From the IMG/VR virus record IMGVR_UViG_2534681674_000012: DNA of 8,296 bases. One strand, given 5' to 3'. Each line of letters begins with the position of its first letter. The first letter of the stretch is position 1. The notes beneath the pieces were generated by a model. The model saw only the letters and a list, made by a program, of their open reading frames with translations. It did no database searches and was not told the origin of the DNA. Origin of the DNA: a virus (Duplodnaviria; Heunggongvirae; Uroviricota; Caudoviricetes). The translations under genes and the position numbers were made by a program. Below are positions 5,376-5,805 of this stretch, in pieces.

Positions 5376-5805
5376 AGAACTCACAAGGAAAATGATAGAA
5401 GGAAATAACATTAGTGATGTACGCATGGCGCCTCCCGCTAAGTTCTGCAATGATCAAACAGAACTCGCTACGTGCCCTTAAAACTCGATCATTTAGCCCC
5501 TCCAAGGAGGATTCACCATGCGGTTGGTTTTTTAATAAACAGTAAACAAAAAAGTCAAGAATTATTCATTCTGTTCTTTCATCATCGGCCACAGCAATAC
5601 CACAATGCCGCAGACCAGAGCGCCATCAGTCAGTACCAACATTATCCTGCTGGTGAAATCCATCATCACCATCACTAAAAGCAGGATCACAACAGCAAGC
5701 AGACACAGTTTATAAAACAATGTTCAGAAAACGCATTCAGCATGCCTAAGGTTCTATTCCTACGAATAGCCAACTTGCAACTTAAAATATTATTTATGCA
5801 GCCAA

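Follow-up and report, generated by a model that had tools for sequence, protein, structure and literature searches.

Positions 5504–5723 of the DNA analysed here, an 8,296-nt stretch from a virus of the class Caudoviricetes (IMG/VR record IMGVR_UViG_2534681674_000012; hereafter the window), carry a near-perfect Shine-Dalgarno (SD) sequence and a five-codon open reading frame (ORF) on the plus strand, and a small hydrophobic ORF on the minus strand. The question raised by this locus is whether the spacer encodes a leader peptide, a toxin-like or regulatory module, or simply the debris of a deletion. As set out below, the region most probably (about 0.9) consists of two adjacent, co-oriented genes on the minus strand, a DUF3927 membrane protein gene and the gene for the small RNA (sRNA) PasD1, which lie in the lambdoid "moron" region between Q and the holin gene, and the plus-strand combination of SD and mini-ORF is an untranslated by-product. 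PasD1 has already been described and the DUF3927 ORF has already been annotated, and neither element represents new biology.

The Q-to-lysis module of a degraded prophage

The window represents a degraded lambdoid prophage of E. coli, a remnant with IS3 elements and deletions on its flanks. Between 4228 and 7425 every real gene lies on the minus strand, and the elements follow one another in this order:

7425 to 6802, minus strand: antiterminator Q (Pfam Antiterm, 194 bits)
6564 to 5806, minus strand: multi-pass membrane ORF of 252 aa (247 aa in RefSeq), of unknown function (PHROG 1521, E = 8.9e-154)
5720 to 5562, minus strand: DUF3927 "TciB-like" small membrane protein gene, 52 aa, TTG start and TAA stop (Pfam, PHROG, RefSeq)
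5521 to 5349, minus strand: PasD1 sRNA, 173 nt, starting 5′-GCAUGGUGAAUCCUCCUUGGAGGGG and ending in U8 (identity to PasD1 of E2348/69)
4940 to 4725, minus strand: class II holin (profile and ORF list)
4725 to 4228, minus strand: endolysin/lysozyme (profile and ORF list)

The 252-aa ORF, whose product is labelled "hypothetical protein" in RefSeq, is moron cargo preceding the DUF3927 gene; apart from one sub-threshold chance match at most, it has no match in Pfam, NCBIfam or PADLOC. PasD1 begins 40 bases downstream of the DUF3927 ORF and is followed directly by the holin and lysozyme genes. The same setting, with Q upstream and holin/lysozyme directly downstream, has been described for PasD1 (cluster 1) in a recent preprint (bioRxiv 10.64898/2026.05.13.724894).

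Positions 4127–7489 are colinear, at 98–99%, with intact Q-to-lysis modules, including that of prophage PP4 of EPEC E2348/69. Of 5426 complete E. coli genomes, 678 contain a 501-nt core (5300–5800) at a coverage of 80% or more, the median being six copies per genome, and the search with this core returned 3720 places in E. coli; the genome closest to the window is that of strain 2013C-4974. This colinearity and distribution indicate a conserved module, and the suggestion that the spacer might be deletion debris can be set aside.

PasD1 and the motif opposite its 5′-end

The segment from 5521 to 5349 is identical at all 173 positions to PasD1 of E2348/69, which has been mapped to NC_011601 1060260–1060432 (plus strand, 173 nt) and detected with the Northern probe CATGCGCAGCCAGAACTCACAAGG (PMC8550237, table S6). 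This probe matches the plus strand of the window exactly at 5365–5388, and at the four published positions that discriminate between PasD1 and PasD2 the window has the PasD1 state, unlike PasD2 and phage 434. PasD1 and PasD2 are prophage-encoded sRNAs that were found by RIL-seq in EPEC E2348/69, were verified by Northern blotting and are associated with Hfq (Pearl Mizrahi et al., 2021, PMC8550237); the same paper names EcOnc13 of EHEC as the homologue. The small regulatory RNA that the original prediction had suspected in this region is therefore present, and it is PasD1. Its 5′-end was set from RNA-seq coverage and the size on Northern blots rather than by 5′ RACE, so that coordinates counted from this end may be in error by a few nucleotides.

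The published seed of PasD1, UGUGAG at nt 137–142, complements a CUCACA motif of the RIL-seq targets (PMC8550237, fig. S5 and table S7). In E2348/69 the reported partners are mRNAs of virulence genes (bfpB, tir, cesF and perB) and of core genes, and an intact copy of PasD1 in a heavily degraded prophage consequently bears on the set of sRNAs that pathogenic E. coli carry. In a Δhfq strain the level of pasD1 changes little by RNA-seq (log2FC −0.18), although its stability on Northern blots is reported to be Hfq-dependent (PMC8550237). The copy in the window would likewise be recovered with Hfq and would pair in trans with mRNAs through the seed just upstream of the terminator. The elements of the sRNA gene and of the strand opposite to it are as follows:

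5558 to 5553, minus strand: −35-like hexamer TTGACT of the putative promoter, 4 nt after the DUF3927 stop
5537 to 5528, minus strand: AT-rich −10 region TATTAAAAAA, with a putative exact hexamer, on whose opposite strand the mini-ORF has its TTT and TAA codons
5504 to 5535, plus strand: SD and mini-ORF (MRLVF*), the antisense image of PasD1 nt 1–18 and of promoter positions −1 to −14
5435 to 5423, minus strand: 3′-strand of the closing helix, PasD1 nt 87–99 (GGAGGCGCCAUGC), in the MFE and centroid structures
5385 to 5380, minus strand: UGUGAG seed, as published and unchanged in the window
5375 to 5349, minus strand: intrinsic terminator of PasD1, stem GGCUGCGC-AUG-GCGCGGCC followed by U8 (terminator scan; eight pairs, seven of them G-C)

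A terminator is annotated at the same place in the phage 434 record. The predicted fold of PasD1 has an MFE of −56.9 kcal/mol (z = −2.07), whereas the opposite strand folds worse (z = −1.29). In both the MFE and the centroid structures, nt 1–8 (GCAUGGUG) and 12–17 (CCUCCU) pair with nt 86–99 (GGGAGGCGCCAUGC) to form a closing helix, and the fold also includes a central hairpin and the terminator. The helix GCAUGGUG/CACCAUGC is retained in STnc100-type relatives with a single change of U-G to U-A, and when eight PasD and STnc100 variants were folded together, the closing helix was retained and the central hairpin showed two compensatory pairs.

The SD and mini-ORF of the original prediction are present in the sequence: AAGGAGG at 5504–5510 of the plus strand is followed, after seven nucleotides, by ATG CGG TTG GTT TTT TAA at 5518–5535. 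In the alignment to PasD1, AAGGAGG is the complement of nt 12–18 (CCUCCUU), ATG (5518–5520) is the complement of nt 2–4 (CAU), and the last four codons with the stop, CGG TTG GTT TTT TAA, are the complement of promoter positions −1 to −14. Nucleotides 1–18 of PasD1 (GCAUGGUGAAUCCUCCUU) would serve the closing helix with nt 86–99, and the strand opposite them spells AAGGAGG-N7-ATG, while the TAA exists because it is the complement of TTA in the AT-rich −10 block.

It might still be argued that the plus-strand AAGGAGG-ATG truly initiates a five-codon peptide with a leader or regulatory role, or is what remains of a plus-strand gene that was deleted, because the SD and its 7-nt spacing are near-consensus and because a five-codon ORF of equal length is also found in PasD2-type loci and in one STnc100-type class. 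The peptide itself, however, is not maintained: MRLVF* in the window corresponds to MRLIF* in PasD2 and phage 434, and among STnc100-type loci the most frequent class has MQKCF* and a further class MQ*. Only Met, Phe and the stop persist among the relatives, and these are the complements of the constrained CAU, AAA and UUA, whereas the codons between show no such constancy (RLV, RLI, QKC, or termination at codon 3). Because all genes between 4228 and 7425 are on the minus strand, there is no co-oriented gene downstream for a leader peptide or attenuator to regulate, and the sole documented plus-strand RNA nearby gave RIL-seq chimeras at about 5127–5168, which cover a terminator hairpin ending some 335 nt short of the SD.

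The frequency of such motifs is also within chance. The window contains two copies of AAGGAGG where 0.75 would be expected, with two or more occurrences in 36 of 200 shuffles (18%), and GGAGG-N4-10-ATG occurs four times against 1.57 expected, a number reached in 17 of 200 shuffles. Three of the four GGAGG-N4-10-ATG occurrences, on both strands, fall within the single 173-nt element (at 5424–5520), which points to a structured RNA with CCUCC/GGAGG and CAUG/CAUG helices rather than to a translation start. Among the related loci and prophages examined, none has a longer plus-strand ORF that starts at the position of the mini-ORF. Although the long intact gene that would have contradicted a leader peptide is thus missing from this set, both the leader peptide and the gene relic are displaced by the PasD1 explanation, and a genuine plus-strand start is extremely improbable. 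The mini-ORF is better regarded as a by-product of constraints on the RNA and its promoter that would not be translated. A near-perfect SD with an ATG can, as a general caution, be the antisense shadow of a structured sRNA with helices of these two kinds.

Coding by the sense strand of PasD1 was considered and rejected as well: one GGAGG-N6-AUG gives only MIEF*, and the 36-codon frame that follows a GGAGG-N4-AUG runs past the terminator, has no stop on the 173-nt RNA and differs in STnc100-type relatives. The annotation of such loci calls for correction, in that public records place doubtful ORFs over two sRNA genes that are validated or Hfq-bound. The ORFs concerned are a 132-aa "hypothetical protein" on the plus strand and a 62-aa "putative membrane protein" in phage 434.

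TTGACT and the AT-rich −10 region likely form the promoter of PasD1, which would begin four bases past the DUF3927 stop codon. In 168 related loci the −35-like hexamer is kept as TTGACT or TTGATT, TGTTTATTAAAAA is almost invariant and stands at a fixed distance of 7 nt from GCATGG, and the block TTGA(C/T)T-N15-TATTAAAAA-N7-GCATGG is nearly invariant as a whole. From the −35-like hexamer there are 15 nt to TATTAA, or 18 nt if TAAAAA is taken as the −10 element. A simple sigma-70 scan of the window did not score this promoter, and the hexamers and the exact +1 are accordingly putative. Expression of pasD2 is consistent with a separate promoter: this gene starts 40 nt after the DUF3927 gene E2348C_0687, and although the two neighbours are similar in length, the baseMean in the E2348/69 lysogen is 11017 for pasD2 and 36.7 for E2348C_0687 (PMC8550237). 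This difference argues for a promoter of its own or for much greater stability, and against simple processing from a 3′-UTR.

The DUF3927 gene and its start

The hydrophobic minus-strand ORF had been noted at 5562–5672, as a 36-aa peptide read from what is in fact the internal Met17 (ATG at 5672), with a possible extension to the TTG at 5720. The ORF is real, and its 52-aa TTG form is the conserved one. The 52-aa product belongs to Pfam PF13064 (DUF3927; E = 3.4e-14, 53 bits against a gathering threshold of 25), with residues 7–50 aligned to profile positions 7–49 of 53, and it matches PHROG 1470 "TciB-like" (E = 2.5e-17). It is annotated in RefSeq as WP_000499454.1 and in the curated phage 434 record as TciB. 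A word-index protein search returned 74 homologues, of which all that carry a source name are from E. coli or E. albertii; the DFTSRI...W-P..K core was found more distantly by tblastn in Klebsiella, Salmonella and N4-like phages.

Hydropathy analysis places two hydrophobic segments at about residues 2–20 and 26–44 of the protein, with the conserved motif DFTSRI between them, and the conserved core reads DFTSRI...CGIVVLLWP..K. AlphaFold2 (21 sequences) predicts a single continuous helix with moderate confidence (pLDDT 77.6, pTM 0.41), a result compatible with either one or two membrane spans. Of the proposal that this is a type I toxin-like or small membrane peptide, the second half is borne out, since a membrane protein gene of the DUF3927 family is present. 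The first half is not, because the 52-aa protein has no match to a toxin family or defence system in Pfam beyond DUF3927 or in PADLOC and its mRNA shares no extended complementarity with PasD1 (see below). The literature searched contained no functional test of TciB or of any other member of the DUF3927 family.

The ORF had been described as lacking a recognisable ribosome-binding site, and indeed no SD precedes either the TTG at 5720, upstream of which the sequence reads ...GCGTTTTCTGAACA-TTG, or the ATG of Met17. An in-frame TGA lies two codons upstream of the TTG. A sister allele starts with GTG at exactly the codon where the window has its TTG, a correspondence that favours the 52-aa form and accounts for the lack of an SD. 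This GTG overlaps the stop codon of a TerB-like ORF upstream of it (GTGA; cTGTGAcg), an arrangement that would suit translational coupling and that mirrors tciA-tciB of phage P1. The TerB-like gene of the sister allele is replaced in the window allele by the 252-aa membrane ORF, 85 nt upstream of the DUF3927 gene, and translation of the latter would most likely proceed from the TTG without an SD.

Among 172 loci, the gene occurs as two N-terminal alleles of equal length, the TTG allele (MFYKLCLLAVVILLLV...) in 85 and the GTG allele (MTVKLRLAVAALLLFL...) in 87. An intact ORF is present in 170 copies; the remaining two, both of the GTG type, are in-frame fusions to the upstream TerB-like ORF. 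For codons 21–47 dN/dS is 0.23–0.29, indicating purifying selection, and within the GTG class it is 0.12; between the N-terminal alleles it is about 1.1–1.4 over codons 2–20, where the counts are small. These estimates rest on 19 unique alleles, and the low diversity makes the tests of selection weak.

The high N-terminal ratio over these 19 codons, together with the missing SD, the weak start codon, the in-frame TGA and the low level of DUF3927 mRNA in the E2348/69 lysogen (baseMean 36.7), could be taken to mean that the TTG allele is an untranslated relic that lost its coupled TerB-like gene by recombination, and that only the sRNA is functional. Against this possibility, the TTG allele is intact in all 85 copies, the only variants being two synonymous changes and one conservative replacement (E49K), in a set whose diversity is too low for a strong test; and the divergent N-terminus retains its length, Lys4 and its hydrophobic character. 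The low mRNA level would be expected in any case from the late-operon position of the gene, which should be expressed after Q antitermination and not in lysogens. A relic is therefore unlikely, and a conserved 52-aa membrane protein gene remains the preferred reading.

Linkage of the two genes and comparison with known systems

In 168 of the 172 loci a distance of either 33 or 40 nt separates the DUF3927 stop codon from the 5′-end of the sRNA, and in the 33-nt class the −35-like hexamer overlaps this stop codon. In a reverse search seeded with only the sRNA promoter and 5′-end, DUF3927 was found upstream in 115 of 118 assessable matches, and the other three are DUF3927 variants or a masked copy. 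In Stx2 phages, however, the same sRNA 5′-module lies just after stx2B without a DUF3927 gene, by which an obligate linkage is ruled out. The two genes are tandem and do not overlap, and PasD1 has poor complementarity to the DUF3927 mRNA: the longest perfect stretch is 9 nt, and an unconstrained duplex search yielded only a global duplex of no significance, with an energy that 24% of shuffles equal. From these relations and the stx2B-linked module, the sRNA behaves as a self-contained unit on the 3′-border of the moron cargo.

The same evidence bears on the toxin-like module of the original prediction. A type I toxin-antitoxin (TA)-like arrangement, in which the neighbouring sRNA would hold down the translation of a small hydrophobic toxin, is suggested by a product that is only 52 aa long and very hydrophobic, by a gene without an SD, and by the abundant sRNA whose gene begins at the two set distances in nearly all loci and has DUF3927 upstream in effectively all of the 118 assessable matches. 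The sRNA is nevertheless co-oriented with the ORF and does not overlap it, no overlapping antisense RNA to the DUF3927 ORF is known, and neither the complementarity given above nor the search for Pfam toxin families and PADLOC models favours such a pair. In the sister allele, moreover, the gene is apparently coupled to a TerB-like gene, as in P1 tciAB, which is an operon arrangement rather than a TA arrangement, and the stx2B-linked module makes the linkage dispensable. The RIL-seq target passages of PMC8550237 that were available to us do not name the DUF3927 gene as a target of PasD1 or PasD2. No test supported a type I TA module, which is very unlikely here. A role in a defence system was also considered and rejected, as PADLOC returned nothing for the 52-aa and 252-aa proteins.

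The sRNA promoter embedded in or abutting the DUF3927 stop codon, the spacing in 168 of 172 loci and the 118-case reverse search give rise to a different idea, namely that the DUF3927 gene and a PasD/STnc100-type sRNA may be a functional two-gene cassette. By a further conjecture, the CCUCCU close to the 5′-end of PasD1, which equals the core of the 16S rRNA anti-Shine-Dalgarno sequence, might, once the closing helix opens, serve as an additional seed that targets the ribosome-binding sites of mRNAs. Both ideas are speculative, and we hold them to be improbable. As far as literature searches show, neither PasD paper comments on the DUF3927-sRNA linkage. Two adjacent genes, of which the sRNA gene is autonomous, remain the preferred account of the locus.

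Compared with the PasD RNAs of EPEC E2348/69 (Pearl Mizrahi et al., 2021, PMC8550237; Zhu, Shabalina and Storz, 2026, preprint), the window has the same 173-nt length, terminator, seed and position. The RNA is the same as PasD1 of E2348/69, and the differences lie outside it: promoter spacer position −2 is C in the window and T in E2348/69 and phage 434, two further upstream bases differ, and the host prophage of the window is a degraded remnant.

STnc100 (Rfam RF02076) is a gammaproteobacterial prophage sRNA of which 11 copies are listed in EHEC EDL933, one of them downstream of stx2, and it has been described as a structural homologue of PasD1 and PasD2 (bioRxiv 10.64898/2026.05.13.724894). 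The window matches the model over its full length at 5551–5346 of the minus strand with 37.5 bits (E = 1.8e-5), whereas true STnc100-type loci score 101.6 bits; because 37.5 bits is below the gathering threshold of 47, PasD1 is a relative of STnc100 but not a member by the Rfam threshold. The two share the promoter block, the first 13 nt (GCAUGGUGAAUCC), the C-rich/G-rich 5′-hairpin, the closing helix and the central hairpin, which shows compensatory changes, and many STnc100 copies also have the terminator of PasD. PasD differs in that 8 nt of the CCGGG/CCCGG hairpin are missing and in having another internal domain and another seed-bearing 3′-tail.

The window ORF resembles the other members of PF13064 and PHROG 1470 in its small size, its two hydrophobic segments and its DFTSRI...CGIVVLLWP..K core. 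The name "TciB-like" derives from the tciABC operon of phage P1, where the naming rests only on the similarity of TciA to TerB. Unlike the P1 TciA-TciB pair, the window has no TerB match in the upstream 252-aa ORF and has a TTG start without coupling, and the coupled GTGA is found only in the sister allele.

The type I TA systems hok/sok, tisB/istR-1 and zorO/orzO also place a small, hydrophobic, SD-poor ORF beside an abundant sRNA; the window differs from them in its tandem arrangement, in having no antisense overlap, extended complementarity or toxin-family match, and in the operon context with a TerB-like gene in relatives. There is also a likeness to the convergent sRNA pairs at the PR′ moron site of lambdoid prophages (AgvB, AsxR and their partners; Tree et al., 2014, PMC4104026), with which the window shares the succession of Q, a moron coding sequence, two convergent sRNA genes and the next conserved phage ORF. 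PasD1, on the minus strand from 5521 to 5349, faces a terminated plus-strand RNA at about 5079–5169, which is neither AgvB nor AsxR (no Rfam match to either) and resembles PasA and PasC only at its start and terminator. An autonomous sRNA gene at the edge of moron cargo fits this PR′ moron-site architecture.

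The PasD/STnc100 family and a convergent RNA

The prophage sRNA PasD1 belongs with its structural relative STnc100 (Rfam RF02076) to a family of mosaic make-up, as is seen when the sRNA regions of four related loci (L005, L099, L140 and L159) are compared. The promoter and the 5′ hairpin are common to these loci, and are combined with internal domains of at least three different kinds, 3′ tails with seeds of three different kinds and one or other of two terminators, giving RNAs of 173, 195, 209 and ~158 nt.

A second sRNA-like gene faces PasD1:

~5079-5169, plus strand: sRNA-like gene, convergent to PasD1

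Its 5′ start, ATGTGTGTTACAT, resembles PasA and PasC, and at its 3′ end a T-run follows a long hairpin, GCCAGCGCAGA...TCTGCGCTGGC. Its only Rfam match is a weak one, to Esr41 (32 bits vs a gathering score of 102). It is identical to an RNA of the E2348/69 prophage PP4 catalogued as 'E2348C_1013', whose level falls strongly when hfq is deleted (log2FC -2.9). The RIL-seq chimeras of this RNA, with the entC and dnaK 5′UTRs, map to window 5127-5168.

Reading frames over the two sRNA genes

Both sRNA genes are overlaid by protein ORFs in public annotations, and the sense strand of PasD1 itself carries motifs resembling Shine-Dalgarno sequences:

5083-5481, plus strand: 132-aa 'hypothetical protein' WP_033816266.1 (RefSeq), antisense to PasD1
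5316-5504, minus strand: 62-aa 'putative membrane protein' CPT_434_70 (phage 434), running past the PasD terminator
5424-5435 and 5490-5503, minus strand: SD-like GGAGG motifs in PasD1, each followed by an AUG

Neither WP_033816266.1 nor CPT_434_70 has a family match, and the sense frame lacks conservation between PasD and STnc100-type loci; both ORFs look spurious. Of the GGAGG/AUG pairs, one reads MIEF*, and the second starts a frame of 36 codons in which no stop comes before the 3′ end of the RNA. Ribosome coverage of STnc100 copies was variable in an EHEC RIBOseq study.

Decay and cargo of the prophage

The prophage is heavily decayed at 2603-4127 and 7422-8178, where its remnants include a tape-measure fragment fused out of context and a terminase fragment, and its intact part is confined to the block from Q, the antiterminator gene, to the endolysin gene. 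The closest genome, 2013C-4974, has an additional IS3 copy at the junction matching window 4127, and another IS3 transposase interrupts the phosphatase gene upstream of Q.

Two ORFs in the left part adjoin tail-fibre remnants:

787-2148, plus strand: 453-aa 'hypothetical protein' (RefSeq), with a faint, LRR-like Pfam signal and nothing else
2211-2486, plus strand: 91-aa 'hypothetical protein' (RefSeq), following the 453-aa ORF

Such a place is typical for prophage-borne effector cargo. Further left, 304-475 on the minus strand gives a sub-threshold Rfam match to IS009 (86 bits vs a gathering score of 117, E=6e-19), and an adjoining terminator-like hairpin at 215-277 matches the CssrB 3′ end.

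The sister allele of the DUF3927 gene

In the sister allele of the gene for the small membrane protein DUF3927, the GTG with which the gene starts shares bases with the TGA stop codon of a TerB-like ORF (cTGTGAcg):

L005 2480-2510 and L009 2480-2510: GTG/TGA overlap of DUF3927 and the TerB-like ORF, sister allele

Flanked by phage tRNA genes on one side and the sRNA on the other, the two genes form a probably coupled pair resembling tciA-tciB of phage P1.
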